From the NCBI GenBank assembly GCA_964447725.1, contig CAYUUB010000002.1, forward strand, positions 1 through 33,175: a stretch of DNA of 33,175 bases, read 5' to 3'. This document shows, in pieces, positions 3,402 to 26,261 of this stretch; positions within the stretch are counted from its first letter, which is position 1; each line of letters starts with the position of its first letter. The notes beneath the pieces were generated by a model. That model did not search any database and was not told the DNA's origin. It saw nothing but the letters and a program-made list of their open reading frames with translations. Source of the DNA: an uncultured Oscillospiraceae bacterium. GTDB taxonomy: Bacteria > Bacillota > Clostridia > Christensenellales > CAG-138. Position numbers and translations under genes: made by a program.

Positions 3402-3497
3402 AAGCCGTGCCAATCGGGAACCGGCGCTATGTTTCGGTCGGCCCGAACCGTTCTGAAATTACCGGGAACAAACGGATTCCTTCTGTCGTTGCGGCAG

Positions 3498-3528
3498 AAA
3501 GCGCCTCCGTTTCCGGCGGAGGCGCTTT
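3498..3528 (-). terminator. Candidate terminator of the five-gene operon
   Basis: A 12-bp stem AAAGCGCCTCCG / CGGAGGCGCTTT with a 7-nt loop lies 47 nt downstream of the stop at 3575. The U-tract on the minus strand is short (UUUCUG), hence the moderate confidence. Confidence 0.5.
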
Positions 3529-3574
3529 GTTACATTCCGCGGCAATCGATCAAACGATTAGCCGTCCGTTTTCG

Positions 3575-5074
3575 TCAGTCGCCTTCGCATGTGTTTCGAA
3601 TCATCTTTCCGTCTTTCTCAACATGGTAAAACGCTTCCCGATGCGACAGCTCGGTAAATTTCAGTATCTGGTATCCCTGTTTTTCACCGTTTCTATCTTC
3701 AATTTTGTAAAATTCCGCCCAGTTTCTACGGCGCGCATTCGCATCGTTGAACGAAGGAACAAGATAAGCGGTGGCGCTTGAGCCCTGTCTCCAGATCGCG
3801 GCATAAATCGAAGTATCGGCCTGCGCCTTTTTAAAAGCCGGCTTTCTGTCTTCCGTCGGGTCCAGCAGCGCGTACTCGAAGCCTGCTTTTTTTATCTTTT
3901 CCTGCCATAGATCGTTGGCGACGATATCCGACAACTGGTTGACAAGGTCCAGCGCGCTTTGGTAGTTTTCTTTCCTGATTCGCTCTTCTTTAAGTCGTTC
4001 CTCTTCTTGTTTTTTCTTAAGCTGCTCTTCTTTAAGCCGTTCCTCTTCACGTCGCTTTTTCTTAAGCTGCTCTTCGTTCGGCGGCTCGGGTTCAGAGCCT
4101 TTCGGCTTTCTGTTCGATTTTTCGTCCGTATCCCCTTTTGTTTGCAGCGGAATACGGTCCGGACGGACGGCGGTCCCGTTCCCGTTCGCGTTATCAAGGC
4201 GAATCAGCAAAATCGGGGACTCCTCCGGACTTTCAAAGCGCACTGTCGTTGTGAGATTTACTTCGGTCGGTGCCTTTGCGCGATCCGCTTCTTCGGGGAT
4301 TTGTTTCAGCTTTTCGCTCGCTTTCGCACCCGCTGTTCTATGCTCGAAAATAAGCCAAACGAAGCAGGCTATGAGCAGCGTTGCAAAAACGCATGCGACA
4401 ATCAGGACGATAAGCATCGGGGCGTCCAGCACCGGCTCCCTGTTCGCCAAAGCGGCTTCGTCCTCCGCGGTTTCCGTTACAGTGTCCTTTGCCTGCAGTT
4501 CCGCCGTTAGCAAATCGATCTTTGTCTGCAACGCTTCGGTCTTTCCTTCGAGCATGGCGACTTCTTCCACGCGGTCCGTGTCGGTTTGTATCAGCGCGTC
4601 GATAACGGCGCCGGAGTCGATCCAGCCGGTTTCTGCAAATGTTGAATCCGCGTCCTGATCGCCGGACGTTTCATTTTCTGATTCGTCCAGGGTAGCGCTA
4701 TCTGTTTCAACTGATTCGTCAGCATTTTCTATGCTTGTTTCCGGCTCGCCGGCGGTCCAAACGATTTTTACTTCACATTTGCCGGTCAAGCCGGCCTGCC
4801 CTTCCTCTGCATTTTGGTCCACCGCCGACCTCTGTAGAAACACGTGGGCAGTATTTTCAACGCCGTCTTCACCGCTTTGGTAAGAAACGTATTCTCCCGG
4901 TTCGCCGGGGGATAATCGTCCGATTTCTTCGCCGGAAGCATCGTAAACCGCCGTCGTCTCGCAAACGAAGATTTCGACGCCGTCCTCCGAGTCTTCCGCG
5001 GCATACGCCGTTTGGCAAAAGCCAAGCAGCAGCAGCGCGGCGATCAGCAGCGCGATTTTTCTGTGCATCTTCAT
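3575..5074 (-). CDS. Bitopic (type I) membrane protein: signal peptide, acidic ectodomain, one TM helix, K/E-rich repeat, C-terminal globular domain; function unknown
   Basis: 499-aa ORF whose ATG overlaps the upstream stop (ATGA at 5071-5074). Signal peptide MKMHRKIALLIAALLLLGFCQTAYA|AED. The D/E/T-rich region aa 26-215 includes a coiled-coil-like stretch VEEVAMLEGKTEALQTKIDLLTAELQAKD. TM helix PMLIVLIVACVFATLLIACFVWLIF spans aa 219-243 (nt 4346-4420). The repeat EEQLKKKRREEERLKEEQLKKKQEEERLKEERIRKE spans aa 334-367. The roughly 130-aa C-terminal domain has no motif I recognise. Confidence 0.8.
   Translation of the reverse strand: MKMHRKIALLIAALLLLGFCQTAYAAEDSEDGVEIFVCETTAVYDASGEEIGRLSPGEPGEYVSYQSGEDGVENTAHVFLQRSAVDQNAEEGQAGLTGKCEVKIVWTAGEPETSIENADESVETDSATLDESENETSGDQDADSTFAETGWIDSGAVIDALIQTDTDRVEEVAMLEGKTEALQTKIDLLTAELQAKDTVTETAEDEAALANREPVLDAPMLIVLIVACVFATLLIACFVWLIFEHRTAGAKASEKLKQIPEEADRAKAPTEVNLTTTVRFESPEESPILLIRLDNANGNGTAVRPDRIPLQTKGDTDEKSNRKPKGSEPEPPNEEQLKKKRREEERLKEEQLKKKQEEERLKEERIRKENYQSALDLVNQLSDIVANDLWQEKIKKAGFEYALLDPTEDRKPAFKKAQADTSIYAAIWRQGSSATAYLVPSFNDANARRRNWAEFYKIEDRNGEKQGYQILKFTELSHREAFYHVEKDGKMIRNTCEGD
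3974..4075 (-). repeat. Imperfect 42-45-nt in-frame tandem repeat encoding the K/E-rich segment
   Basis: On the plus strand, CTCTTCTTTAAG(T/C)CGTTCCTCTTC occurs at 3983-4006 and 4025-4048. TTTTTCTTAAGCTGCTCTTC occurs at 4011-4030 and 4056-4075. The repeat is coding (EEERLKEEQLKKK x2), not a CRISPR or intergenic repeat. Confidence 0.85.
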
Positions 5075-8000
5075 GTTTTTGCCCTCCCCCGGCTGCCTGC
5101 CGTTGTGCAGGCAAGGTAGTATTGGCTCAATGCATCGACCGCACCAATAAGAAACGCGTCTCCGTCGTCAATGTGACCTTTCAGTACTTCCCGATCGTAT
5201 TGATGCCTGCCCGGTTTGTCAAATATTCCGGCTGAGTATTCGCCTTGTTTGAATGTCCAGTCAAAACACTCGCTTGCGGCCGTTTTATAAGCTTCTAGCA
5301 GTTCATTGAATTCTTTTCGACCGGCTTCGACCACCTTTTCATGCGCCGCATTACGCGTTTTATTACCGGTGGCCGCCTCTGCTGCCGAATCGGTTCCCGC
5401 CGCCGTGCCGAAACGTACTTGCGAGGAGGTGGAGCGCTTGCCATCGCCAAATATCGCCGGCCTTCCTTTGAGCGAACCACTGGCGACTTCCAGCTTAGGG
5501 TCTTTTGAAAACTCGCATTCAAAATCCTCCGGAGCAATGGCTGCATGCATTCCCGCCAGGAACAGCCGGTAAACGAATTCCGTCTTGCTTTCTTCGTCGC
5601 GGTGGATCCAATGAATCATTTTTGAACCGTTGCCAGCAAGGATGACAGAAGCGCTGTCTTTTGAAATCTCTTTTTCGTCCCTTAACATAAGGCCTGCACA
5701 AAAGATGATCGACGCCAGATAAAATGCGACCCTTTTTTTCAGCTCCAGCAGCGCACCGGCTCCATTTTCGCCGGGGTTTTTCCCCGCGCAATATTTTGCG
5801 TAAGCCTCTCCGAACGTTTTTTCATTGTGAACCTGCGTGTCGATATTTTTGTCTTTCGGGATTTTCATGCCAAGCAAATCTTCGATACTGCTTTCGCCGT
5901 TTCCGTCCTGGCTTTTGCAAATATCATTGATAAATCCATCGACGTCGTAATACATTTCTTTGATGCTGTCTTCCGCATTATTAACAAGTATCTTAAGCTT
6001 GGCCGCATTGTTATCCCGCAGGCCTTCCAGCAAAATTTTCCGTGCGCCGAAGCGTATCGAACTCGAATAACAATGCGATATTCCATCGTTCACCGCGTCG
6101 ATAAAGATATCCGCGGAGCCGCCGCCGATATCGATTACGCAATACGTAACCTGTCTGGTCACTGCGCTGGCTGCATACCGGAAAGCCGCCTCGCTTTCGG
6201 TTATTTCAATTATGCTGCCCACCGTCTGGTCTGTATTGTCTTCTGCATTAATGCTGCCCATCGCCTGGTCTATATTGTCTTCTGCATTATCCGGCCGGTG
6301 TATTGCAAGGCCCGTGTTTTGGATTACCCTGTTCAGCGCAGCGCCCAGGGACGTGAAATAGCCATCCACAGCCTGCCTTTTAAACGACAGCGGGTAGGAC
6401 GCCGTCAACGACAGCTCGCTGCAATTGTTGCATTTCGCTTCCAGTGCGATCATGTACAACAGTTGCATCAGCATTGCTTCCACGCGCTTTTGGTTGTTGT
6501 CGCCGCTTTGGCACCACTTTAAATTCGGATATAATTTAGGCTGTGCAAAACTCTTTCGACGCCCCAAAAACGCCCGGTAAAATATCCAGCTGTCGAATAA
6601 CGGTTGCCGAGCAATATTCGTGGCGGCCGCATCCGCTAAAATCGACTGCAGCGGAACGCTTTTTGCGATTTCTTTTGCAAGTTCCTCTTTCGCAGGAATG
6701 TCCCTGTAACTCGGCAGGTCGCTCTCCCTGTCCGACAAGGTTTCCATAATTTCCTTTGCGGTAAGCGGCATTGCGGGAACAAAGTATTTCACAAAATACG
6801 GCGTATCCGTCTTGCTGTCAATCCTTGGATTGAGCAGCGGCATGCTCCAGAAATTGAGCCCGCTGATCAATGTTTCTTTCGTTTCCCCCCTGACTCTGCC
6901 AAACAATGTCGTTGAGGACGTGCCGAAATCCAGGGCCGCCTCGTAGATGCGCGGATTGTTTGCGGTCCCAATCAAAGCCGATTTTCTCGTTGTGACATAA
7001 CCCAGTAAAGCATTATTATAGTAAAGTTTGCAACGCTCCGGCATTTGCTTGAGCATGTAGTACGTCAGCTGCGTTTTCCCTCCATCTTGGTGATCTTTCC
7101 CCGGTTCTTCCTTTTTTGAGGCTTCGCTTGTTTTTTCAGCTGTCTTTTTATCTTCATGTTCCGGTTCTATTTGATATCCCTGCCGATTGATGATCTGCTC
7201 TTCATCTTCAGGCGTTAATCGATAATGGCTGCTTTCGACGCAGAACATGAAGTATTTCGACCATCCGTCGATCCGCTGTCTCGGCCAGATGCCCGCCGTG
7301 CAGAAATCGTACCATGTCGCAAACTCTATCGCAGGTTTTTCATATAGACGCGAGAAAACGATATTTCCGATTGTTACAGTCGCCTCGATTTTTGAAAGCT
7401 TAATATCCTCGCCGCACGGAGTAATTTTGACTTCGTATTTTGGTTCCAGTTCCGCGTTCTCGTCCCACAGCTTCCAGAACATCTCCGTAACCGGCATTGG
7501 TATGAAAAAGTGTACGTATTTTTCCTTTCTTTCGAGGGCCTTCAGGCACTCGTCTCCCAAACCGCCGGCGGCTTTATGGATGTCCGTAAGCCTGTCGTAA
7601 CGCGCTCCCTGCTCGATTATCGCGTAATGCACCGTATCGGAAAACAGCTTGAATGTCTTCGGCACCGGGACCCGCCAAATCTGAAGCTCTCCATTCTTGT
7701 GTCCCTTTACAACGTCGTCTATATTCGGGGTTGTCGCGGTCTCCAGTTTATATGCACTATTCAAAGCATAGGAATAGTCCTGGATCAACCGTTCTTTCAG
7801 CAAGCCGTTATGGGATGTTTTTTGGTCATAGGCGTCAAGCCATCGTTTCAGCACCAACGCATGGATTTGCCATATGGCGGGAATTTCCCGATCTTTTGCA
7901 ACCTTTATCATTCCCGGCGTATAGACGGGTTTCGCATCCTTTGCTGCCCCGAGATCGGCGGCCTCCACATTTTCGACAAGGGCGTGGACCTTCCCACCTT

Positions 8001-8538
8001 TGAGCCAGGGAATCTTGTCCGGATAAACTTTCTGGAGTTTTTCCCAGGCATCCTTTGTCGGGACGATATGCACCGTGGGCGACGACATGGCGATCGGATG
8101 TTGACCATCGACGTCTTCGATGTAATAGATATCCATGCTGTTCCATCTGTCCGCCTTCGGTCTGGTCTTGTACGCCGCGCTGATGTACGGGTTGACCGCC
8201 TCTTTCGTAAAGTCGATTGTTTCCCTACGGACTTTTACATCGTAGGCGTCGGCAAGCAGTAAAACGGCGAGCATGGCGCGCCATTCCCGGACGACGATTT
8301 CTTCATATTCTATGTAACTATTGTCCTGATCGGCGTTCGTAAGCAACATATCAAAGAGCTGATGCTGGCTCCAGATGTCCGGCACAGAGGCGATGCGCCT
8401 CAGATCATGCTGTTTGATTCTGTCCTTATCTTTCGGGTCGACGATGCGGATGGCCTTGCCGATCTCTTTTATTTCCTCTCTTTTCCCCGTCAGTTCGCTG
8501 CTGGTCGGATGAAACGGAAACCAATGATAATACTCCAT
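5071..8538 (-). CDS. Giant (1155 aa) protein: roughly 450-aa N-terminal module of unknown fold, K/E-rich linker, C-terminal actin/Hsp70-like (ASKHA) ATPase core
   Basis: The ORF starts 3 nt after the upstream stop, with GGGAGGGA inside the last codons of the upstream gene. Phosphate-1-like AALDFGTSSTT is at aa 534-544 (nt 6907-6939). Phosphate-2-like CVIDIGGGSADI is at aa 800-811 (nt 6106-6141). Adenosine-like VILAGNGSKM is at aa 965-974 (nt 5617-5646). Their order and spacing match Hsp70/MreB/ParM/FtsA-type ATPases. The linker EPEHEDKKTAEKTSEASKKEEPGKDHQDGGK lies at about aa 458-488. Confidence 0.85.
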   Translation of the reverse strand: MEYYHWFPFHPTSSELTGKREEIKEIGKAIRIVDPKDKDRIKQHDLRRIASVPDIWSQHQLFDMLLTNADQDNSYIEYEEIVVREWRAMLAVLLLADAYDVKVRRETIDFTKEAVNPYISAAYKTRPKADRWNSMDIYYIEDVDGQHPIAMSSPTVHIVPTKDAWEKLQKVYPDKIPWLKGGKVHALVENVEAADLGAAKDAKPVYTPGMIKVAKDREIPAIWQIHALVLKRWLDAYDQKTSHNGLLKERLIQDYSYALNSAYKLETATTPNIDDVVKGHKNGELQIWRVPVPKTFKLFSDTVHYAIIEQGARYDRLTDIHKAAGGLGDECLKALERKEKYVHFFIPMPVTEMFWKLWDENAELEPKYEVKITPCGEDIKLSKIEATVTIGNIVFSRLYEKPAIEFATWYDFCTAGIWPRQRIDGWSKYFMFCVESSHYRLTPEDEEQIINRQGYQIEPEHEDKKTAEKTSEASKKEEPGKDHQDGGKTQLTYYMLKQMPERCKLYYNNALLGYVTTRKSALIGTANNPRIYEAALDFGTSSTTLFGRVRGETKETLISGLNFWSMPLLNPRIDSKTDTPYFVKYFVPAMPLTAKEIMETLSDRESDLPSYRDIPAKEELAKEIAKSVPLQSILADAAATNIARQPLFDSWIFYRAFLGRRKSFAQPKLYPNLKWCQSGDNNQKRVEAMLMQLLYMIALEAKCNNCSELSLTASYPLSFKRQAVDGYFTSLGAALNRVIQNTGLAIHRPDNAEDNIDQAMGSINAEDNTDQTVGSIIEITESEAAFRYAASAVTRQVTYCVIDIGGGSADIFIDAVNDGISHCYSSSIRFGARKILLEGLRDNNAAKLKILVNNAEDSIKEMYYDVDGFINDICKSQDGNGESSIEDLLGMKIPKDKNIDTQVHNEKTFGEAYAKYCAGKNPGENGAGALLELKKRVAFYLASIIFCAGLMLRDEKEISKDSASVILAGNGSKMIHWIHRDEESKTEFVYRLFLAGMHAAIAPEDFECEFSKDPKLEVASGSLKGRPAIFGDGKRSTSSQVRFGTAAGTDSAAEAATGNKTRNAAHEKVVEAGRKEFNELLEAYKTAASECFDWTFKQGEYSAGIFDKPGRHQYDREVLKGHIDDGDAFLIGAVDALSQYYLACTTAGSRGRAKT
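6212..6289 (-). repeat. Two tandem 39-bp units (36/39 identical), in frame, inside the ATPase gene
   Basis: Plus strand: ATGCTGCCCACCGTCTGGTCTGTATTGTCTTCTGCATTA at 6212-6250 and ATGCTGCCCATCGCCTGGTCTATATTGTCTTCTGCATTA at 6251-6289. They encode NAEDNIDQAMGSI / NAEDNTDQTVGSI at aa 751-776, between the connect region and the phosphate-2 motif. Confidence 0.9.
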
Positions 8539-8541
8539 CTT

Positions 8542-10143
8542 TTATCCCTCCCTGTTCGTTTCAACCGAGTCTTTGGAAACGCAACACTCCATCAGCGATG
8601 AAACGAAGTAATTTGCCGGATTGTGCTCGCCGATCTTCATGGAATTCATGGAAGCCGTAATTTCCGCTCCGGGAATGCCACAAAGCGTAAATGCAGCCGT
8701 CCCGTCGCTCGCCTGCCGCGAAATCGATTTTTCTATCGGCATTCCGTCGTTTCGCCCGCTGCCCTCGATCTCCAGCAATTCGTGCATCCCATGGTGGTCG
8801 AGCTCTTCCAGCCAGCGGAACATACTCGACGCAAAGGCCTTTGGAACGGCTACCCCGCGCTGGGTCTCTTCGTATATTTTTTTGAGGTCATCCGTCTTCC
8901 CCCAAACGGCCCGAAACGCTTCCGGCCTGTACCGCCAGGAAAGCTTCTCCTGCGATGCGATCGATTGATAATACACATTCAGCATCAGGTAAAACCGCTC
9001 CAGCCGCAGGATATAGTCTTTGACGCCCGTCTTGCTTTTGGCCTGCCCATAAGCGCCGAAATAATCGAAACTCTTCAGTGGGAAATATCCGTTTGACGGA
9101 ACGGTCCCATCCGTGTCTGTTCTTGTTTTGAGCGGGACCGACACTTCGATGTTTTTCGGATAGTCTCCCGCAAAATAGCGGCAAACGCCGATCGCAGCCA
9201 TCAATTCGGCAGGCATGGACGGATTGTCCTGTCCTTCCTTGGCCTTGCGTTTGCCGTCCGTTTCGACTTTCTCCCAGACGGAATCCCCTTCCTTATCCGT
9301 TTTCTTCTTTTGCATCTCCTGGCAAAAATCGCCGACAAACTGCGTATATTCGACCCCGTTCAGCGCGTCGGACTCCTTATAATACTTGAGCGCCATCTTG
9401 CTGTTGATCGGGAACAGCGAGCTGTCAACCTCCGTATCGAGATCGATGTTGAAATAAGGCAGCATAAGCGTCAGCCCGATGTGTTCGGCGTAATGGGTCA
9501 GATCCCCGTCTTCTTCTTTTTTGCAGGCTTCCTGATACAACCTTGCAAGCGTCGGCGTTCCGCTTGCTCCCGTTCCGCCGAATACAGAGCCGGCAAACAT
9601 TACCCTCAGTTCGTCGTTTCTTCCAACGCCGCTGAAAATGCTGTGCCAGAAGCCGCTTTCATTTCCCCAGTCGTCATGGAAGTTCTTCGCCCAGAGCAAC
9701 GAGCCGATCCTCGGATTGCCCTTACACCCGCGCTGCAGTTCCATAATCCGATCGTTCGTGTCGTACAGCGCATGGAACGTAAGTTTTTCCTCTTCCTCGG
9801 ACGATCCGGGCGTAACGATCAAGTCGAGCGTGCTATTGTCTTTCGTCCCAACGGAAAATTCGGCGAACCTGTCGACCTTCTTTGCTTTCCAGTTTCTTTT
9901 GCGCAGGCCGTCGTCAACCGCAACCGACAAAAACGGCATGGCCGCGTTCAGGCTCTTTATCATTTCCTCAAGCTCGTCCTTGTCGCCGCCTTTTACGATA
10001 TCCAGATCGACCATCCGGATTTCCAGCCGGTAATCGTCTCCGCAAAGGTCCGTCAGCATGCCGGACGCCGCCAGCGCGACGACCGATTGTGCCACACGCA
10101 TGCCGGACCCGCCGATTGCAACCAATACAAACTTTTTTGCCAT
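8542..10143 (-). CDS. Divergent tubulin/FtsZ-superfamily GTPase (Tubulin_2 / FtsZ-like type) with long C-terminal extension
   Basis: 533-aa ORF with GGGAGG 6 nt upstream of the ATG. T1-like VAIGGSGMR is at aa 8-16 (nt 10096-10122). T3-like GCKGNPRIG is at aa 139-147 (nt 9703-9729; compare FtsZ GAGGNPEIG). The T4 signature FGGTGASGTP includes GGTGASG at aa 189-195 (nt 9559-9579; compare GGGTGSG). Codons were checked by hand against the plus strand. I recognise no motif after about aa 330. Confidence 0.85.
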   Translation of the reverse strand: MAKKFVLVAIGGSGMRVAQSVVALAASGMLTDLCGDDYRLEIRMVDLDIVKGGDKDELEEMIKSLNAAMPFLSVAVDDGLRKRNWKAKKVDRFAEFSVGTKDNSTLDLIVTPGSSEEEEKLTFHALYDTNDRIMELQRGCKGNPRIGSLLWAKNFHDDWGNESGFWHSIFSGVGRNDELRVMFAGSVFGGTGASGTPTLARLYQEACKKEEDGDLTHYAEHIGLTLMLPYFNIDLDTEVDSSLFPINSKMALKYYKESDALNGVEYTQFVGDFCQEMQKKKTDKEGDSVWEKVETDGKRKAKEGQDNPSMPAELMAAIGVCRYFAGDYPKNIEVSVPLKTRTDTDGTVPSNGYFPLKSFDYFGAYGQAKSKTGVKDYILRLERFYLMLNVYYQSIASQEKLSWRYRPEAFRAVWGKTDDLKKIYEETQRGVAVPKAFASSMFRWLEELDHHGMHELLEIEGSGRNDGMPIEKSISRQASDGTAAFTLCGIPGAEITASMNSMKIGEHNPANYFVSSLMECCVSKDSVETNREG

Positions 10144-10167
10144 ATCCTGCCTCCCTCGTTACTCCCG

Positions 10168-10719
10168 TCAGTTTTTGATCGTTTTCAGTTTATCGTCCCA
10201 TTTTGCCACGATCCTGCTCCGCAGCGGTACGTTCGTCGCCGGGACATAGTGCATGCACAAGATCCAAATAATCGCACCGCATATTGCCAGCATGAGGTAC
10301 GGCAATCCCGCTCTGAATATGATCCAAAGACTTTCCGGAATATAGTTTCCAATCAGATTTTCGGACACAATTCCATATCGTGCGCCGGCCAATGCGCCGA
10401 TTCCAGCGCAAATCAGCAAGAAATTGCTCCAATTTTGCAAGGAAAGCCGCCCGTGCAGTTTTCGACCTGTATCGCCTTTCTTTTCGTTGACAATAAAAAA
10501 GATCAGGTTGGCGGCAAGCAATGCCATAATGCCGGCAAAATGCGCCCAGTATAGCGAGTTCTGATATGCCTGTGCAACTCGCTGCGAAGCATCGTCCAGA
10601 TAAAAAGCCACCAACACGGGCGTCTTTATCAAAAGCTGCGGAACCAGCGCAAGCAGAAGAGCCGCCGCCACCATTACCGTTATTCGAATTCCAATCCTTT
10701 TTTTTCTTAACGTATCCAT
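10168..10719 (-). CDS. Small polytopic membrane protein (about 4 TM helices), function unknown
   Basis: ORF track 10168..10734 starts at a TTG. I prefer the ATG at 10719 (MDTLRKKRIG...), which has GGGAGG 6 nt upstream. Hydrophobic helices lie at about aa 13-31, 57-77, 97-118 and 130-155 of the shorter form, followed by a basic amphipathic C-terminal tail (RSRIVAKWDDKLKTIKN). Confidence 0.75.
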   Translation of the reverse strand: MDTLRKKRIGIRITVMVAAALLLALVPQLLIKTPVLVAFYLDDASQRVAQAYQNSLYWAHFAGIMALLAANLIFFIVNEKKGDTGRKLHGRLSLQNWSNFLLICAGIGALAGARYGIVSENLIGNYIPESLWIIFRAGLPYLMLAICGAIIWILCMHYVPATNVPLRSRIVAKWDDKLKTIKN

Positions 10720-10753
10720 TGCCAGCCTCCCCAAAATTTATCTCGCCTGTACT

Positions 10754-12556
10754 TTACTGTTGTTCGCCTGTGGATTCCGGATGTTTCAGCGAGAGCGCAT
10801 CCTCGCGGCTGAACGCCCAGCCGTTAAAGTCCTCGTCTTCCTTCCAGTTGCCGGACGGCACGTATATTGCCGGGATATCGCGCACGACGATTCCAAACAC
10901 GGTCGTCTGCACACACGCGTACGTTCCTTCCTCGATTGCGTCCAGGGCAATCTGCGTCTGTTTGTCGGCAATGCCGCTTGCAATCAGGCTCGACAAAAAC
11001 GGCGTCTTTGCGGTTGTCGCCGACGTAAACCGTGCGGACGTACCGCTTTCTTCGCGGATGTACTCTTTGGTAAACTCCTTTAGGTTCAAAGTCCATGCGC
11101 TTGGCCAGCTTGTCTGATAAAGCGCCGCAATCTCATCCCACTGCGGGGATATCCACGTTCGGACGTCCACGGAAAACAGCAGAGGCACGTCTTCCGGGAG
11201 CATATCGGTATTGAGCGAAAAGATAATATCGACGCTTCCGGTTCTCGTATTGATTTGCTTGCTTTCGCACCGTATGATCGATTGATCCGCTTCGACCCAT
11301 TCGGATGTTTTCGTCGCCCCGTCCTTTTCTTCGTAGTTCAGCATCGAGACAACGGGTTCAACGGAATAGTCGGCGGCGGCAAACTCGATTTCATCGGCCG
11401 CGGCCAGCAGACCGTGTTTGTAATAGGCGGCCTCGCCTCCGTTGGACGAATCGGTCAGCGTGTACGGAAGCGTACACTTCACTTCCACGTTGTTTTCGTT
11501 TTCGCCGCGCACATCGGTATATATCTTTAAAACGGGGACGCTTTCCAAAAGCTCGATATCCTCTTCGGACAAATTTGTCGATGCGGGATACAAAATCTCG
11601 TCGTCATCGTTTGGAAGACCGCGAACTAGGTATCCGATATCGTAGTCCGCCGCGTCATACGCCTGGATTCCGGTATGGAACGATATCGAAATATCGTCGT
11701 TTTCACGCTGCCGCACACCGTATTCGGAATAGTAGGCGGCATACACCGGGTTGCTCTCGTCCAGCATCCCGCTGTTTTCAAGGTCGGACAGGGCTTTCTC
11801 CATGCTTTTTAGCACGCACGCGTCGTTTCCCATAAACAGAATGTATATAGGGTGGCGAAAGATCTCGTTTTCGTCTTTGTCCGCAACCATATAGGCGCTG
11901 ATGCTTCTTGCTTTGCCCGTCAGCGAATTAATCGGCAGATTGTCAACGGTTCCTGAAAAATCGCCCAGCACGCCGATGATGCCGACCGTCGTATCGTCCG
12001 GTTCCAAAAACGTTTTCTGTATCGTTTCAGCCGTACGCAGGCAGATATCTTCGGCCGGCATCATCAAATCCGAGATAAAAATGCAGACCGATCCGGGATT
12101 TTCGGAATAAAAATCGGCGATCCCGTCGACAACGTCGGCAATGCTGTTGCTGTCCTCCCGAAAAAACTCTTTCGTATGCGCCGAAAGGAAAAAATCGTCG
12201 CTCGCAGCAGCGCCACGACGTGCATCCCCGGCAATATCGCCGGCGGTATAGCAACTGCGCGCGCTGTTCATGGAAGCGCTCATGACCGCGGAGAGTACGG
12301 CGCTGTACGTTGTGCAGTATTCCGAAACGAACCCCTTCATTCCCTGACCGTCGTCGATCACGATGCAATAGCTCGTATCGCCGGACGTTCCGGCTTCGGT
12401 TTCCACCGCGTGCGGCTTCAGTTTTTCCAGCGCTGAAAGCAGCTGCCGCGTCGGATTCATGATTCCAGCCGGTTCCTCAGGTTCTGCAGCTCCGCATGCC
12501 GTCAATCCAAGCAAAAGCAGCAGGCAGCACGCAACACACAACACTCGTTTTTTCAT
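10754..12556 (-). CDS. Secreted lipoprotein (600 aa) with N-terminal degenerate vWA-like domain; function unknown
   Basis: ORF track 10754..12577. The preferred start is the ATG at 12556 (MKKRVLCVACCLLLLLGLTAC|GAAEP), with AAAGGGG upstream. The lipobox LTAC has its Cys at residue 21. The strand-like motifs are YCIVIDDGQGM (aa 63-73, DxGxG in place of MIDAS DxSxS), SVCIFISDLMMP and TVGIIGVLGDF. Their spacing resembles vWA beta1, beta4 and beta5. The remainder is acidic and beta-rich with no recognised motifs. Confidence 0.8.
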   Translation of the reverse strand: MKKRVLCVACCLLLLLGLTACGAAEPEEPAGIMNPTRQLLSALEKLKPHAVETEAGTSGDTSYCIVIDDGQGMKGFVSEYCTTYSAVLSAVMSASMNSARSCYTAGDIAGDARRGAAASDDFFLSAHTKEFFREDSNSIADVVDGIADFYSENPGSVCIFISDLMMPAEDICLRTAETIQKTFLEPDDTTVGIIGVLGDFSGTVDNLPINSLTGKARSISAYMVADKDENEIFRHPIYILFMGNDACVLKSMEKALSDLENSGMLDESNPVYAAYYSEYGVRQRENDDISISFHTGIQAYDAADYDIGYLVRGLPNDDDEILYPASTNLSEEDIELLESVPVLKIYTDVRGENENNVEVKCTLPYTLTDSSNGGEAAYYKHGLLAAADEIEFAAADYSVEPVVSMLNYEEKDGATKTSEWVEADQSIIRCESKQINTRTGSVDIIFSLNTDMLPEDVPLLFSVDVRTWISPQWDEIAALYQTSWPSAWTLNLKEFTKEYIREESGTSARFTSATTAKTPFLSSLIASGIADKQTQIALDAIEEGTYACVQTTVFGIVVRDIPAIYVPSGNWKEDEDFNGWAFSREDALSLKHPESTGEQQ

Positions 12557-12667
12557 GTTTCCCCTTTCGTTCCGCAAAGCAGGCGAAATACCCGCCGTAT
12601 TGCCGGTATGGCCGTATGATCGATCGAATTTCAGGATATGTTTGGCGAAAAGTATTAAATTTTATTT

Positions 12668-12676
12668 ATTTTATCA
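12668..12676 (-). promoter_or_regulatory. Candidate extended -10 (TGATAAAAT) for the five-gene operon
   Basis: The minus strand reads ...TTTACG-acagttgcccga-TGaTAAAAT..., within an AT-rich tract about 110 nt upstream of the lipoprotein ATG. The -35 is poor and 15 nt away, so only the extended -10 supports the call. Confidence 0.25.
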
Positions 12677-13081
12677 TCGGGCAACTGTCGTAAATTGGAG
12701 GAATCTGTATGAGTCTCGGTTGTTTTGGCTGATTCGGACGGCCTCTTCATGTAAGCGCCGTCCGGTCGCCGCTCTTTCGAATATATCGTCGCTTCGCGCA
12801 AATTTAGGGTTGCCGTGTTTTTCTGTTTTATAAAAAGCCGTCTTGTCTCCGACTCCTGAAATCCAGTTGCTATCGTCCGTTTTCATCCCGCTATGACGCA
12901 GGGAAGCCGGCACTCTTGCAGCATGCGTGACACTGCCCGGTTTCCACCCTCCGCCGAAGATTGCGCCCGCAAATCCGTTTCCGTATAACGATCCGGCTGC
13001 ATAAATGCATAATGTATGTATATGCTTGGCAGATATACAGAATTTCTTCGAATTTTCAAAAATTCTGCACATTTTATACAA
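12674..13081 (-). CDS. Orphan 135-aa ORF, possibly a gene remnant; no recognisable family
   Basis: The ORF-track protein looks protein-like in its second half (GNGFAGAIFGGGWKPGSVTH...WISGVGDKTAFYKTEKHGNPKFARSDDIFERAATGRRLHEE). It has no RBS before the first ATG. Its 5' end overlaps the AT-rich divergent promoter region of argG, and its stop overlaps the candidate -10 above. Confidence 0.25.
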   Translation of the reverse strand: MYKMCRIFENSKKFCISAKHIHTLCIYAAGSLYGNGFAGAIFGGGWKPGSVTHAARVPASLRHSGMKTDDSNWISGVGDKTAFYKTEKHGNPKFARSDDIFERAATGRRLHEEAVRISQNNRDSYRFLQFTTVAR

Positions 13082-13100
13082 TATATTTTAACATTTGCTA

Positions 13101-13129
13101 TTGACTATTTATTCTAAATTATTTAATAT
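13101..13129 (+). promoter_or_regulatory. Sigma-70-type promoter of the arg operon
   Basis: TTGACT (13101-13106), a 17-nt spacer, then TAATAT (13124-13129). It lies about 30 nt upstream of the argG RBS GGAGG (13149-13153). Confidence 0.55.
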
Positions 13130-13161
13130 ATATGCAATACATAAATTGGAGGCAGATTCCT

Positions 13162-16764: not shown

Positions 16765-17972
16765 AACAGATAGAAGGCGGCGTATGCGCCGCAGCCGGCT
16801 TTACCGCCGCGGGCGTATATTGCGGCATCCGGAAAAATAAAACCAAAAAAGACCTCGCGCTGATTGCAAGCGAAAAACGCGCGGCCTGCGCCTGCGTCTA
16901 TACGCAAAACCTCGTAAAAGGCGCGCCAATCGCCGTTACGAAGCGGAACGTCGCCGACGGATACGCCAGCGCGATCATCTGCAACAGCGGCAACGCCAAC
17001 ACCTGCAACGCAAACGGCGTTGAAATCGCGGAAACGATGTGCGATTTGCTCGGCAAAGCGCTCGGCATTCCGGCTTTCGACGTGGTCGTCGCGTCCACCG
17101 GAGTCATCGGAAAACCGCTCAGTATCGAACCGATCGCTGGCGGTATCCCGTCGCTTATTGAAAGCCTTGGCGACGACAGCGACGGCGCGGCACGCGCCAT
17201 CATGACCACGGACGTAAAGAAAAAGGAAATCGCGGTCGAATTTTCAGTCGGCGGGACAACCTGCAAAATCGGCGGCATCGCCAAGGGCAGCGGCATGATT
17301 CAGCCGAATATGGCGACCATGCTCGGTTTTATCACGACCGACGCCGCAATCAACCCAGCCATGCTGCAAAAAGCGCTCAGTTCCGACGTCCCGGAGAGTT
17401 TCAACATGGTCAGCATCGACGGCGACACCTCGACCAACGATATGGTGACCATCCTCGCAAACGGCATGGCAGGCAACGAAGAAATCGCCGAGGCGGGCGC
17501 GGACTTCGATTCGTTCTGCGCCGCGCTCGGCATGGTCACGCAGTATCTGAGCCGTGCCATCGCGGGCGACGGCGAAGGCGCAAGCAAGCTGCTCATATGC
17601 GCCGTTTCCGGAGCGGCCGGCAAGGGCGACGCAAAGAAGCTGGCAAAGAGCGTCATCAACTCCCCGCTGGTCAAGTGCGCCATGTTCGGCGCGGACGCAA
17701 ACTGGGGCCGCGTCCTCTGCGCGCTCGGTTACGCGGGCGTCGCCGTGGATGTGAACAAGGTCGGCGTCCGTTTTTCGTCGGCGGCAGGCGAAATCGAAGT
17801 CTGCAAAAACGGCATGGGCGTGGACTTTTCGGAGGAACTGGCGAAGGCCGTGCTTTCGGAGAGCGAAATCACCATCGCCGTCACGCTTGGCGACGGGGAT
17901 GCGTCGGCCACCGCGTTCGGCTGCGACCTGACCTATGATTACGTCAAGATCAACGGAGACTACCGGACATGA
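16761..17972 (+). CDS. argJ: Bifunctional glutamate N-acetyltransferase / amino-acid acetyltransferase
   Basis: Autoproteolysis motif PNMATMLGFITTDA. ORF track starts at 16695. I prefer the TTG at 16761 (LKQIEGGVCAAAGF...), which overlaps the argC stop (TTGA) and has GGAAAGG 10 nt upstream. Confidence 0.92.
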   Translation: MKQIEGGVCAAAGFTAAGVYCGIRKNKTKKDLALIASEKRAACACVYTQNLVKGAPIAVTKRNVADGYASAIICNSGNANTCNANGVEIAETMCDLLGKALGIPAFDVVVASTGVIGKPLSIEPIAGGIPSLIESLGDDSDGAARAIMTTDVKKKEIAVEFSVGGTTCKIGGIAKGSGMIQPNMATMLGFITTDAAINPAMLQKALSSDVPESFNMVSIDGDTSTNDMVTILANGMAGNEEIAEAGADFDSFCAALGMVTQYLSRAIAGDGEGASKLLICAVSGAAGKGDAKKLAKSVINSPLVKCAMFGADANWGRVLCALGYAGVAVDVNKVGVRFSSAAGEIEVCKNGMGVDFSEELAKAVLSESEITIAVTLGDGDASATAFGCDLTYDYVKINGDYRT

Positions 17973-18823
17973 TCATCGATATCGCAAAGCGCGCGGAAGT
18001 GCTGATTCAGGCGCTGCCGTACATTCAAAACTATTACGGCAAAACCGTCGTGGTCAAATACGGCGGCAGCGCCATGGAGGACGAAGCGCTGCAAAAGGCG
18101 GTCATGGGCGACGTCGTGCTGCTCACGCTCGTTGGCGTAAAGATCGTCCTGGTTCACGGCGGCGGGCCGGCGCTCAGCGCCATGCTCAAGCGCCTCGGCA
18201 AGGAGAGCACGTTCGTCAACGGCCTTCGCGTGACCGACCGGGAAACCGTGGACGTTGCGCAGATGGTGCTCGCGGGCAAGGTCAACAAGGGGCTCGTCAA
18301 CCTGATTCAGAACGTCGGCGGTTCCGCGGTCGGCCTCTCCGGCATGGACGGGCACCTCATCGAAGCAAAAATGAAGGACGAAGCGCTCGGCTATGTCGGC
18401 CAGATCGTCGCCATCCATCCGGAACCGATCGTCGACCTGCTGGAAAAGGGTTATATCCCCGTTGTCTCCACGCTCGGCTGCGACAAGGAGGGCAACATCT
18501 ACAACGTCAACGCCGATACCGCGGCAGCCTATATCGCGGGCGCGCTGGAAGCGGAGAGCCTGATCAGCCTGACCGACATCAAGGGCGTGCTGCGGGACCG
18601 CGGCGATCCGCAGTCGCTGATTACGCGCATCCATTTGGACGAAATCGCGTCGCTGGAAGAGACGGGCGTCGTCACCGGCGGCATGATCCCGAAACTCGAA
18701 TGCTGCGTCCACGCCGTCGAACAGGGCGCCAAACGCGCATTTATCATCGACGGCCGCGTGCCGCACTCCATCCTCATCGAGATGCTGACGGACGAGGGCA
18801 TCGGCACGATGGTAACGCAATAA
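17969..18823 (+). CDS. argB: Acetylglutamate kinase
   Basis: 284 aa with ALPYIQNYYGKTVVVKYGGSAM and ATGA overlap with the argJ stop. Confidence 0.96.
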   Translation: MIIDIAKRAEVLIQALPYIQNYYGKTVVVKYGGSAMEDEALQKAVMGDVVLLTLVGVKIVLVHGGGPALSAMLKRLGKESTFVNGLRVTDRETVDVAQMVLAGKVNKGLVNLIQNVGGSAVGLSGMDGHLIEAKMKDEALGYVGQIVAIHPEPIVDLLEKGYIPVVSTLGCDKEGNIYNVNADTAAAYIAGALEAESLISLTDIKGVLRDRGDPQSLITRIHLDEIASLEETGVVTGGMIPKLECCVHAVEQGAKRAFIIDGRVPHSILIEMLTDEGIGTMVTQ

Positions 18824-18847
18824 CGCAGCCGCAAGGAGGGCAATCTT

Positions 18848-20038
18848 TTGACAAATCAGGATGTAATGCAGTTAACCGACGAACATATTCTCGCAACTTA
18901 TGCGCGTTTTCCCATTGCGCTCGAGCACGGCGAAGGGGCAACGCTGTACGATTTCGACGGAAAGCGTTATGTTGACTTCGCCGCGGGGATCGGCGTCTGT
19001 TCGCTCGGCTACGGCAACGAAAGCTGGCTTGACGCCATCGTTTCGCAGGCGAAAAAGCTGCAGCATGTTTCCAATCTGTACTATACCGAGCCCGCGGCGC
19101 AGCTTGCAAAAGCGCTGTGCGAACGGGCCGATATGTCCGGCGCGTTTTTCTGCAATTCCGGCGCGGAGTCCAACGAAGCCGCGATCAAACTTGCGCGCAA
19201 GTATGCGTTCGACAAATACCGCACCGGCAGAAATACGATCGTCACACTGAACCGGTCCTTTCACGGGCGAACGGTCACAACGCTCGCCGCAACCGGGCAG
19301 GACGCGTTTCACAACTACTTTTTCCCGTTTACCGAAGGGTTCCGCTACGCAAACGCGAACGATGTCGAAAGCGTGAAAGCCGCCTGCTGCAACGGCGACG
19401 TCTGCGCCGTTATGATGGAGCTTATCCAGGGCGAAGGCGGCGTGCTCCCCCTCGAAAAGGAGTTCGTGCAGGAGGTTGCGGCGTTCTGCCGCACGCAGGA
19501 TATCCTGCTGCTCGTTGACGAGGTGCAGACCGGCGTCGGACGCACGGGCACGCTCTTTTGCTATCAGCAGTACGGCATTCAGCCGGACGTGGTCAGTTTT
19601 GCAAAAGGCATAGCGGGCGGTCTTCCGTTCGGCGGCATTCTGGCCAACGCGCGTTGCGCGGGTGTTTTTTCGGCAGGCACGCACGCGACGACCTTCGGCG
19701 GAAACCCGGTGTGCGCGGCGGGTGCAAACGCCGTACTCGGCACGCTTACGCCGGAATTTCTCGCCGACGTTGCGAAAAAAGGCGACTATATCCGCTCGAA
19801 AGTGAAAAAAATGGACCTGCCGATGGTCACCAGCATCCGCGGTCTCGGCCTCATGGTCGGAATCGGCGTGTCGGTTTCCCACAAGGAAGCCGTGTCCAAG
19901 CTGGTTCAAAACGGCCTGCTCGCGCTCACCGCGGGCAGCGACACCATCCGTTTCCTGCCGCCGCTGGTGATTACTTATGATGAAATCGATAAAGGTCTCG
20001 CGATCTTTGAAGCAACAATGGGAGGTTATGCAAAATGA
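18848..20038 (+). CDS. argD: Acetylornithine aminotransferase
   Basis: 396-aa class-III aminotransferase with the PLP-lysine context [15 protein letters not shown] start with AGGAGGG 7 nt upstream. Confidence 0.93.
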
Positions 20039-24405: not shown

Positions 24406-25425
24406 ATGATCGTTATTTTAAAGCCCAATCCCGACAAAGGGCAACTGGAAAGCCTGATCTCCTGGCTGCAGGGCAAAGGCATTCAGATTCACACAAGCCT
24501 CGGCACGTCCCGTATGATTCTCGGGCTGGTCGGCGACACCTCGATGCTGGACATCGACCTGATCTCCGCGCTCGATATCGTCGACGATGTAAAGCGCATT
24601 CAGGAACCGTACAAAAACGCAAATCGGAAATTCCACCCGGACGATACGGTGATTTCGGTCGGCGGCACGCAAATCGGCGGCGGGAACCTGACGCTTATGG
24701 CGGGACCCTGTTCTGTCGAGACGGAGGACCAGATCGTCGAAGTTGCAAAAGCCGTTAAAGAAAGCGGCGCGACCATGCTGCGCGGCGGCGCCTTCAAACC
24801 GCGAACCTCGCCGTATTCATTCCAGGGGCTCGGCGCAGAGGGACTCCGCCTGCTGGAGCTGGCAAAGCAGGAAACCGGGCTGCCCGTCGTCAGCGAAATC
24901 ATGGACGCTTCCCAGCTTCCGTTGTTCGAAAATGTGGACGTGATCCAGGTCGGCGCGCGCAACATGCAAAATTTCAACCTGCTCAAGGTGCTGGGCGCAC
25001 AGGACAAGCCGGTTATGATCAAGCGCGGGCTGGCCTCCACATACGAGGAATGGCTCATGAGCGCCGAATACGTCATGGCCTCCGGCAACGAAAACGTAAT
25101 TCTGTGCGAACGCGGCGTGCGCACCTTTGAAACCTATACGCGCAACACGCTGGACATCGCCGCGGTCCCGGTCTTGCGGCACTTAACGCACCTGCCGATC
25201 ATCGTCGACCCCAGTCATGCCACCGGCCGGTCCGCGCTGGTCGCGCCGCTCGCCGCGGGCGCGGTCGCCGCCGGATGCGACGGCCTGCTCATCGAGGTCC
25301 ACAACGACCCCGCCCACGCGTTGAGCGACGGTCCGCAGTCTCTGAATCCGGAAGCGTTCGACCGGCTTGCGAGGAAGCTCGTCGCCCTGCACGGTTTCAT
25401 GCGCGACCTGGTGGCCGCACAATGA
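24406..25425 (+). CDS. aroF: 3-deoxy-7-phosphoheptulonate (DAHP) synthase, type I-beta with N-terminal ferredoxin-like regulatory domain
   Basis: 339 aa. An N-terminal roughly 65-aa domain MIVILKPNPDKGQLESLISWLQGKGIQIHTSLGTSRMILGLVGD precedes the catalytic barrel (LMAGPCSVE, GGAFKPRTSPYSFQG, IVDPSHATG). This is the architecture known from Thermotoga-type DAHP synthases. Confidence 0.95.
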   Translation: MIVILKPNPDKGQLESLISWLQGKGIQIHTSLGTSRMILGLVGDTSMLDIDLISALDIVDDVKRIQEPYKNANRKFHPDDTVISVGGTQIGGGNLTLMAGPCSVETEDQIVEVAKAVKESGATMLRGGAFKPRTSPYSFQGLGAEGLRLLELAKQETGLPVVSEIMDASQLPLFENVDVIQVGARNMQNFNLLKVLGAQDKPVMIKRGLASTYEEWLMSAEYVMASGNENVILCERGVRTFETYTRNTLDIAAVPVLRHLTHLPIIVDPSHATGRSALVAPLAAGAVAAGCDGLLIEVHNDPAHALSDGPQSLNPEAFDRLARKLVALHGFMRDLVAAQ

Positions 25426-26258: not shown

Positions 26259-26261
26259 GCG

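Follow-up and report, generated by a model that had tools for sequence, protein, structure and literature searches.

What a tubulin-like GTPase and a giant ATPase of the actin/Hsp70 fold might do together at the bacterial envelope is the question raised by a five-gene operon in a 33,175-nucleotide stretch of DNA from an uncultured Oscillospiraceae bacterium (GenBank assembly GCA_964447725.1, contig CAYUUB010000002.1, positions 1 to 33,175), referred to below as the window. The operon occupies positions 3575-12556 of the minus strand and encodes, in this order, a lipoprotein, an integral membrane protein with four predicted transmembrane (TM) helices (the 4-TM protein), the GTPase, the ATPase and a bitopic membrane protein. 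At least four of these components are co-inherited across phyla, and the fifth probably is as well; our best guess is that the set represents the Clostridia version of a phylum-spanning module. The reading that we find most plausible, and hold only tentatively, is that the five genes encode one membrane-anchored assembly with two nucleoside triphosphatases (NTPases), which would be an accessory trait used in biological conflict, i.e. in defence against phages or competitors or in the response to envelope damage. The architecture is new and undescribed; it belongs to the FtsZl1/Tubulin_2 assemblage, which is broad and unexplored by experiment, and has a large unnamed family of ASKHA proteins at its core.

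The third gene is predicted, from its sequence and a structural model, to encode a divergent GTP-binding domain of the tubulin superfamily that stands at the edge of the Tubulin_2/FtsZl1 group. In an alignment of 40 sequences, G11, G12 and G14 of the T1 loop and S186, F188, G189, G190, G192, A193 and G195 of the T4 block (SVFGGTGASG) are invariant, and both hallmarks of the tubulin/FtsZ superfamily, a glycine-rich T1 and the T4 signature GGGTG(S/T)G, are thus present. D46/D48 after strand 2 and G139, P144 and G147 were matched by eye to T2 (NTD) and T3 (GANPxVG) of FtsZ, respectively. The AlphaFold2 (AF2) model (pLDDT, 84.4; pTM, 0.90) shows a compact helical C-terminal domain and no long coiled coil, and Foldseek searches of the PDB with this model retrieved almost only tubulins, OdinTubulin, FtsZ, CetZ and BtubAB at a probability of ~1.0. 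These matches (E-values from 8e-4 to 1e-2, ~280 aligned columns) have low TM-scores (0.2-0.38) and span the N-terminal ~280 residues only. The protein's own match to the Pfam Tubulin_2 model (PF13809) is below the gathering threshold (13.2 bits versus a cut-off of 27; E = 0.055), and hhalign against the single sequence of Escherichia coli FtsZ aligned the T4 block alone (E = 0.028, not significant by itself). Some 57 close relatives share 30-57% identity, the closest being found in Christensenella, Christensenellaceae and Clostridia metagenome-assembled genomes (MAGs), a group from which the window probably derives, and the more distant relatives (E-values from 1e-22 to 1e-5) include many proteins of ~500 amino acids, most of which carry PF13809. 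Because the score of the window protein is subthreshold and yet its homologues carry PF13809, its tie to Tubulin_2 is placed at the level of the superfamily or the edge of the family. A tubulin/FtsZ fold had been claimed for this protein in a first-pass annotation, and the claim stands on the Foldseek matches, the invariant T1 (GGSG) and T4 (GGTGASG) motifs and the PF13809-bearing homologues (E-values from 1e-19 to 1e-10).

The protein encoded by the fourth gene is predicted on similar grounds to contain an ASKHA core, i.e. the two-lobed RNase-H-like fold with intact nucleotide-binding motifs. The phosphate-1 (DxGxT/S), phosphate-2 (DxGGG) and adenosine (GxG) motifs that define ASKHA proteins are found in the right order. 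Invariant residues in an alignment of 23 sequences are D537, G539, T540 and S541; D803, G805, G806, G807, S808 and D810; and G969, N970, G971, S972 and K973, and D537, G539, D803, G805, D810 and G969 are still invariant across 44 distant members. An invariant ITESEAA segment resembles, by eye, the NEPTAAA of Hsp70. With a pLDDT of 66, the AF2 model has moderate quality. Foldseek searches with it gave 220 PDB matches at E ≤ 1e-3, of which the top 50 listed are all nucleotide-binding domains (NBDs) of Hsp70, DnaK or BiP (best E-value, 4e-7), and 18 BFVD matches at E ≤ 1e-3, all named ones being viral Hsp70s. A profile of the 44 members matched MreB (E = 1.8e-5), actin and FtsA in the PDB, and Pfam scans of each member hit ASKHA families only, all below threshold (MreB_Mbl in 13 members, Ppx-GppA and FtsA in 7 each, EutA in 3 and SrfB in 1). 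The structural and profile matches thus bear out the earlier recognition of an ASKHA core in this protein. Single-sequence searches of the PDB with the GTPase and with the ATPase were empty, and neither protein has a TM helix in its hydropathy profile.

The C-terminal half of the ATPase shares the fold and the motifs DxGTS, ExxAA and DxGGG(S/T)xD with the NBD of Hsp70/DnaK. It is, however, unlike the Hsp70 family proper, because neither the window protein nor its 44 relatives match PF00012 and no substrate-binding domain is present. Membership in SrfB (PF07520), for which the first-pass annotation had called for a check, was not borne out (one of 44 members at E = 0.009 and no match for the window protein), and the Pfam scores for FtsA and MreB are far below threshold. 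A match to the PADLOC model 'REase_II' (E = 0.005) was judged to be noise. The N-terminal ~520 residues contain Trp/Pro motifs (SIPDxWA, EWRGLLA, TSPTT and IWP) that are invariant across the 44 distant members; no Pfam match, PDB sequence relative, internal repeat or duplication, or similarity to the other operon proteins was found for this half, which also sets the protein apart from Hsp70 and SrfB. A word-indexed search retrieved only 39 full-length relatives, whereas an exhaustive profile search yielded 990 clusters (at 50% identity) with E ≤ 1e-3, including 387 with E ≤ 1e-10. Most of these proteins have 1000-1300 amino acids and match in both halves. Pfam and NCBIfam contain no model for the family, whose members are named 'hypothetical protein' in RefSeq.

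As in FtsZ-FtsA, genes for a tubulin-fold GTPase and an actin/ASKHA-fold ATPase lie side by side in the window operon, and the two proteins presumably meet at the membrane. Unlike in that pair, the gene order is reversed, no dcw genes are found nearby in the window and the ATPase is three times larger than FtsA. An FtsZ_C domain, a T7 loop and the 1C domain and amphipathic helix of FtsA were not found in the window proteins. Identity with the dcw ftsA-ftsZ pair was rejected, since no match to PF00091, PF12327 or PF14450 was above threshold and the flanks consist of galK and of arg and aro operons; the earlier view that neither NTPase is canonical and that no dcw cluster is nearby was therefore correct. 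The pairing nevertheless brings to mind a cytoskeletal membrane-remodelling module, which we regard as possible but rather unlikely. In such a module, the GTPase would polymerize along the inner side of the membrane, the role of the giant ATPase would be to tether or organize it like FtsA, and the membrane proteins would couple both to the envelope for the formation of vesicles, local envelope growth or differentiation. Both NTPases are assigned to superfamilies with cytomotive filaments (the ATPase profile leading to MreB, actin and FtsA, and the GTPase to tubulin and FtsZ), and the adjacency of their genes recalls ftsA-ftsZ. However, by structure the ATPase matches Hsp70 NBDs best, rather than actin or MreB, and the failure to find a T7 loop or an FtsZ-type C-terminal domain in the GTPase also speaks against this explanation.

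The five genes form one translationally coupled operon (Table 1). They are consecutive, tightly coupled open reading frames (ORFs) followed by a strong hairpin, and the ORF positions given in the first-pass annotation were reproduced, as were its ATG starts at 12556 and 10719. The mechanically delimited ORFs of the first two genes begin further upstream at TTG codons (10754-12577 and 10168-10734); the real start of the lipoprotein gene is the ATG at 12556, giving 600 amino acids, and the 4-TM protein starts at the ATG at 10719, giving 183. Direct reading of the four junctions confirmed the lengths previously assigned to them, and a G-rich Shine-Dalgarno sequence is present at each: the lipoprotein and 4-TM genes are separated by 34 nt, with GGGGAGG preceding the ATG; the 4-TM and GTPase genes by 24 nt, with GAGGGAGG; and the GTPase and ATPase genes by 3 nt, with GGGAGGGA lying within the final codons of the GTPase gene; whereas the ATPase and bitopic genes overlap by 4 nt (ATGA), with GGGGGAGGG ahead of the overlap. 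The core of the hairpin after the last gene consists of GCGCCUCCG/CGGAGGCGC plus UUUCU; its calculated free energy of -30.3 kcal/mol (z = -4.0 versus shuffled sequences) is in line with the terminator that had been proposed there. Inside the operon, terminator-like matches are not more frequent than in shuffled sequence (21 versus 14.7 ± 3.6). The promoter is presumably located in the AT-rich intergenic stretch that separates the operon from the divergent argG gene, where scanning upstream of the operon detected only weak sigma-70-like matches. The arrangement is not due to chance, because other genomes contain full-length homologues of each gene, arranged in this order.

Table 1. Features of the five-gene operon and its borders in the window
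Feature	Position	Strand	Remarks
Gene 1, lipoprotein, 600 aa	10754..12556	-	ORF with ribosome-binding site; signal peptide; lipobox LTAC
Gene 2, integral membrane protein, 183 aa	10168..10719	-	Four predicted TM helices
Gene 3, GTPase, 533 aa	8542..10143	-	Predicted tubulin/FtsZ superfamily, short Tubulin_2/FtsZl1-like form; helical C-terminal domain
Gene 3, loops (residues)		-	T1 GGSG 11-14; T2 D46/D48; T3 GNPRIG 142-147; T4 GGTGASG 189-195
Gene 4, giant ATPase, 1155 aa	5071..8538	-	Residues 1-525, conserved region; ~530-1050, predicted Hsp70-NBD-like ASKHA domain
Gene 4, motifs (residues)		-	DFGTSSTT 537-544; ESEAA 781-785; DIGGGSAD 803-810; GNGSK 969-973
Gene 5, bitopic membrane protein, 499 aa	3575..5074	-	Signal peptide; acidic ectodomain 26-217; TM 221-239; K/E-rich helix ~330-375; cytoplasmic C-terminal domain ~376-499
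Intrinsic-terminator-like hairpin	3489..3545	-	3' of the last gene; core stem 3500-3526; GC-rich
Intergenic region, 575 nt	12557..13131		AT-rich; operon on one side, divergent argG on the other

The remaining three products would place the two NTPases at the membrane. According to the predicted topology, the lipoprotein and the ectodomain of the bitopic protein face outwards, the 4-TM and bitopic proteins span the membrane and the two NTPases are cytoplasmic. This arrangement, already proposed in the first-pass annotation, agrees with the hydropathy and charge profiles of all five proteins. The lipoprotein, which is 100% identical to a 600-amino-acid database protein, has the signal peptide and lipobox (LLGLTAC) of bacterial lipoproteins, and the lipobox Cys is invariant in all 34 homologues from several phyla. 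Its N-terminal region appears to be of the alpha/beta type and contains the segments DDGQGMKGF and IFISDLMM, and its C-terminal region is beta-rich. Relatives carry DATxSM and VTDLFQ, which resemble the metal ion-dependent adhesion site (DxSxS) and the beta4-TDG block, and the window protein has DDGQGM. A vWA domain (PF00092/PF13519), which had been suggested as worth checking, was nevertheless not confirmed: none of 34 family members matched the VWA models of Pfam, a profile search of the PDB with the lipoprotein family gave no match, and hhalign against the integrin I-domain and vWF-A1 was not significant. The resemblance of the motifs alone was retained. When the lipoprotein alignment was used as a profile against a large protein database, just six proteins were retrieved.

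The 4-TM protein shows an N-in, C-in polarity with positively charged cytoplasmic helix ends (hydropathy and charge profile). Its homologues are present in 16 Clostridia-type loci; outside these, the slot just before the GTPase gene is always occupied by a protein of 150-190 amino acids with three or four TM helices. Homology between the two sorts of small TM protein received no support (hhalign probability, 12%), and they are treated as positional analogues. The bitopic protein's C-terminal domain is related to the C-terminus of a ~300-amino-acid protein whose gene, in other phyla, comes after that of the ATPase (hhalign probability, 94%; E = 1e-7). Neither a MotA/ExbB-like channel for the 4-TM protein nor a MotB-like role for the bitopic protein, whose TM helix lacks Asp, was supported by any hhalign signal.

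In type IV pili (PilM-PilN) and type II secretion (GspL), bitopic membrane proteins bind an ASKHA-type scaffold. That the operon encodes a platform of this kind, for assembly or transport across the envelope, is an improbable explanation: the ASKHA protein would be a cytoplasmic scaffold on bitopic proteins, with the lipoprotein as outer partner, and in diderms a MotAB-type motor would power secretion, assembly of a surface structure or gliding. The set of lipoprotein, bitopic, polytopic and cytoplasmic ASKHA components parallels PilMNOP and GspLM. However, no conserved gene for a secretin, pilin, secretion ATPase, transporter or substrate occurs in the neighbourhood, apart from the generic ASKHA motif no sequence similarity to either PilM or GspL was reported, and a tubulin-like partner is without precedent in such machines.

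The gene order (~600, 185, 530, 1080 and 420-470 amino acids) is found again in Clostridia MAGs whose flanks are unrelated. At least 587 relatives of the GTPase were detected when one genome per species was scanned, the best 80 loci being kept, and gene order was surveyed in 86 loci by ORF calling and profile searches. The giant ATPase has a homologue in 61 of the 86 loci, in nearly all of which its gene directly follows that of the GTPase, and a lipoprotein homologue is encoded upstream of the GTPase in ~50. Loci with both NTPases span six phyla and were found in Bacillota, Acidobacteriota, Poribacteria, Cyanobacteria (Calothrix, Nostoc, Nodularia, Arthrospira, Westiellopsis and Chamaesiphon), Bacteroidota/Ignavibacteria and Brevundimonas. 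The order that recurs across phyla is lipoprotein, small protein with three or four TM helices, GTPase, giant ATPase and bitopic protein. In 38 loci, the pairwise-distance matrices of the GTPase, the ATPase and the lipoprotein are highly correlated (r = 0.93-0.96), which fits inheritance as a unit; shared phylogeny also contributes to this correlation. The co-occurrence of the five genes in other genomes, on which the first-pass annotation had staked its proposal, is thus found even across phyla. Its claim of an undescribed system was right in that no named match was found; the system is not a rarity, being the Clostridia form of a widespread family, as the numbers of GTPase relatives and ATPase clusters indicate, at the edge of the predicted FtsZl1/Tubulin_2 assemblage.

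In an Acidobacteria MAG (L005, 4827-9959), a 1710-amino-acid RHS-repeat/YD-shell gene lies between the lipoprotein/small-TM genes and the GTPase gene. In Westiellopsis prolifica (L072, 11485-14757), ~3 kb with four small ORFs, which may be an insertion, separate the GTPase and giant ATPase genes.

Several lineages have added genes to the module. The operons of Poribacteria and Acidobacteriota end with two extra genes, which encode a MotA_ExbB protein with a coiled-coil tail of 400-600 amino acids and an OmpA/MotB protein, and these match the PADLOC models of ZorA (4e-11) and ZorB (1e-17), respectively. Such pairs were located in L078 (16067-19184) and L040 (15629-18140) and also in L033, L051, L054, L055, L059, L075 and L084; judged by sequence, they would represent a Zorya-like stator joined to non-Zorya partners. 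The 4-TM and bitopic proteins showed no significant hhalign similarity to these ZorA/B-like families. The MotA_ExbB/OmpA partners of the diderm versions are compatible with the transport platform considered above, whereas an add-on so far known from defence detracts from membrane remodelling. In Bacteroidota/Ignavibacteria, a gene for a canonical Hsp70 (PF00012, E = 1.7e-80) comes right after that of the giant ATPase (L056, 15050-16576; also L058, L068 and L085).

Most copies of the cassette are chromosomal, but the whole cassette is also carried by mobilizable cyanobacterial plasmids, namely those of Picosynechococcus PCC 7003 (NZ_CP016476.1; L087, 7217-17743) and Gloeothece PCC 7822 (47.5 kb, NC_014503.1; L088, 6875-16782), and its GTPase gene is found on plasmids of PCC 8807, PCC 73109 and Synechococcus NIES-970. 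The RefSeq names of the plasmid cassette products are 'hypothetical', 'tubulin-like doman-containing protein', 'prefoldin domain-containing protein' and 'TM2 domain-containing protein'. The PCC 7003 copy adjoins an alternate F1F0 ATPase operon. In addition, 16 IMG/VR contigs (L089-L104), which may be true phages or prophage-flanking host DNA, encode GTPase relatives; most show the order lipoprotein, small TM protein, GTPase and ATPase, and some also contain OmpA-like genes. The flanks of one such contig resemble unannotated faecal 'Bacteriophage sp.' records only weakly, and a tblastn search of 50,697 GenBank phage records gave no match to the cassette.

TubZ, which is tubulin-like, and ParM, which is actin-like, are plasmid segregation proteins, and the plasmid-borne copies of the cassette therefore raise the question of a plasmid or DNA segregation system of either type that lies beside membrane protein genes by chance. 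We consider this very unlikely, as we noted neither a DNA-binding adaptor nor centromere-like repeats, the lipoprotein and the membrane partners are obligatory, most copies are chromosomal, nothing was matched in the phage collection and the window copy is flanked by core metabolism. The distribution also bears on membrane remodelling: the module is common in filamentous cyanobacteria, as that explanation would allow, but its patchy occurrence, its carriage by plasmids and its low GC content argue for an accessory trait.

Among published families, one of the two nearest is FtsZl1, predicted computationally and described by Makarova and Koonin in 2010 (PMC2875224) as proteins of ~900-1200 amino acids that combine a long coiled coil with a helical C-domain. 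FtsZl1 operons comprise vWA, OmpA/MotAB-like and GTPase genes and the uncharacterized genes B1-B9, and a function in membrane remodelling was proposed (PMC2875224), which counts in favour of such a role here as well. The loci that the available text of that paper describes include one in Magnetospirillum with a single 1626-amino-acid DnaK-like neighbour and others in Deinococcus with MotA/OmpA neighbours (PMC2875224), and MotA/OmpA neighbours are likewise found in some relatives of the window operon. The window GTPase resembles FtsZl1 in its distant relationship to PF13809 proteins, with a subthreshold Tubulin_2 match; in the inserts that lie between T1 and T4 and the lack of an identifiable T6-T7; and in its membrane-associated partners and its position as an accessory copy beside housekeeping genes. 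It differs in being about half as long (533 amino acids) and in lacking the long coiled coil. Furthermore, its ASKHA partner of ~1100 amino acids is not among the families vWA, OmpA, GTPase and B1-B9 that the available text of the 2010 paper gives, and in place of the COG2304 vWA protein there is a lipoprotein without a confirmed vWA domain. No experimental follow-up to the FtsZl1 prediction was found in the literature.

Such neighbourhoods were recast as DO-GTPase/GAP1-N2 conflict systems, likewise among the nearest to the window operon, in the computational study of Kaur, Burroughs, Iyer and Aravind in 2020 (PMC7159879), in which related tubulin+vWA and HSP70 neighbourhoods were classed as conflict systems proposed to act near the membrane by NTP-dependent assembly. 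The window operon shares with them tubulin-superfamily, Hsp70-fold, extracytoplasmic-domain and TM components. In that study, however, the 'tubulin' and 'HSP70' themes are separate and non-overlapping, and the HSP70 is canonical and accompanied by GrpE or DnaJ (PMC7159879), whereas in the window operon the tubulin-like and Hsp70-fold genes are adjacent and the ATPase is giant with a novel N-terminal half. Membership in these systems, whose defining pair is a TRAFAC DO-GTPase with GAP1 and which also have an FNIII or GASH protein, was rejected, as neither a P-loop GTPase nor an FNIII domain occurs in the operon or its conserved neighbourhood; the absence of GAP1 is concluded from the lack of any extra conserved gene, no GAP1 library model having been used. 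Literature on Tubulin_2, on Zorya variants, on tubulin-like or actin-like defence and on SrfABC yielded no description of this architecture. With Pfam, NCBIfam and PADLOC searches likewise empty, no named system matches, and the earlier view of the cluster as a candidate undescribed system holds.

The conflict or envelope-damage role is favoured because of the low GC content and the insertion among core genes, the patchy cross-phylum distribution, the carriage by plasmids, the ZorAB-like add-on and the published reading of related systems. The IMG/VR contigs carrying the cassette and the RHS gene inserted in one cassette were also counted on this side. From topology and synteny, we infer that the five proteins form a trans-membrane complex. 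Its outward-facing parts may sense or bind something at the cell envelope, be it a perturbation or an invader, and the bitopic and 4-TM proteins would relay the signal across the membrane. The NTPases would then be docked by the bitopic protein's conserved cytoplasmic C-terminal domain. The GTPase could act as a GTP-dependent self-assembling switch or scaffold, while the giant ATPase, through its N-terminal half, might hold, remodel or execute the output at the membrane. By analogy, the role would probably resemble that of Zorya and of the tubulin/HSP70 conflict systems predicted by Kaur et al. in 2020 (PMC7159879). With Zorya, which is an anti-phage system, the shared idea is an envelope sensor with cytoplasmic partners, and the relatives in Poribacteria and Acidobacteriota bring a ZorA/ZorB-like pair of their own.

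A number of results weigh against a function in conflict. No recognizable effector (nuclease, protease, NADase or pore) is found in the core, and the PADLOC defence library recognized none of the five window proteins. Zorya membership of the window operon was rejected, given that the ZorAB-like pair is absent (no PADLOC match in the five proteins to ZorA, which is MotA-like with a long tail, or to ZorB, which is MotB-like with a PG-binding domain) and no equivalents of ZorC-G were found. When PADLOC was run on 133 flanking proteins from related loci, only a small minority matched, several of them to generic families, and these few matches give no clear sign of a defence island. In tubulin/FtsZ proteins, a T7 catalytic loop and a C-terminal activation domain permit GTP hydrolysis coupled to polymerization; a T7-type loop was not found in the GTPase, which has no invariant acidic residue after position 200, E313 being the sole near-invariant one. 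Finally, a Selenomonadaceae/Quinella clade (L032, 5711-10412; L022-L047 generally) has a 462-amino-acid GTPase and a small TM protein and lacks the giant ATPase, and a gene resembling LCP (LytR-CpsA-Psr, recognized by eye only) and another for a protein of ~200 amino acids lie upstream. This context suggests a link to the attachment of cell-envelope polymers; with its LCP-like neighbour and no giant ATPase, the variant points to envelope physiology rather than immunity. Its place among envelope-biogenesis genes suits the membrane-remodelling explanation, and the LCP-like neighbour suits the transport platform.

In a wider and somewhat more speculative picture, the module would be a previously unrecognized, phylum-spanning envelope machine in which the short GTPase of the tubulin type and the giant ATPase of the Hsp70/actin fold co-assemble on a lipoprotein/4-TM/bitopic platform. 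This would constitute a second, independent 'FtsZ-FtsA-like' pairing in bacteria, driven in some lineages by a ZorAB-type proton motor, and might serve either as a new class of envelope-triggered immune system or as a membrane-remodelling organelle of a new kind, with the N-terminal half of the ATPase as a new effector or adaptor fold. Apart from function, the analysis defines a conserved five-gene module for which no name was found in databases or papers, and a large family of ~1100-amino-acid proteins without a model (~990 clusters at 50% identity). The module unites the two great cytoskeletal/chaperone NTPase folds in a single operon that lies outside cell division, and it extends the FtsZl1 prediction of 2010 by a concrete, compact architecture. 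A function in defence would mean a new effector logic, which some phyla couple to Zorya-type stators, and a cytoskeletal function would mean a new bacterial membrane-remodelling apparatus. The operon is a good lead to a membrane machine of a new type, and tractable hosts carry the module, among them Picosynechococcus PCC 7003 (on a plasmid), Gloeothece PCC 7822, Arthrospira and Brevundimonas.

In the window, the operon is inserted between galK and argG and is surrounded by core-metabolism genes only. One flank contains genes for a MerR regulator and a Zn-phospholipase C as well as galK, and the other contains argG-argH-argC-argJ-argB-argD-argF, beyond which lie genes for an IclR regulator and a PfkB kinase and an aromatic amino-acid operon. 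The GC content of the five-gene operon is 0.48-0.54, lower than the 0.58-0.64 of the arg and aro operons next to it. Mobility genes were not found in the window, and tRNA and Rfam scans of it gave no match. Between the genes for DAHP synthase and 3-dehydroquinate synthase (25215-26504), a 429-amino-acid minus-strand ORF without a Pfam match overlaps a 327-amino-acid ORF on the plus strand. At 17935-18975, the longest ORF (346 amino acids) has no Pfam match, and the real gene is an overlapping ORF of 284 amino acids (17969-18823), which corresponds to argB, encoding acetylglutamate kinase (PDB match, E = 2.5e-91).

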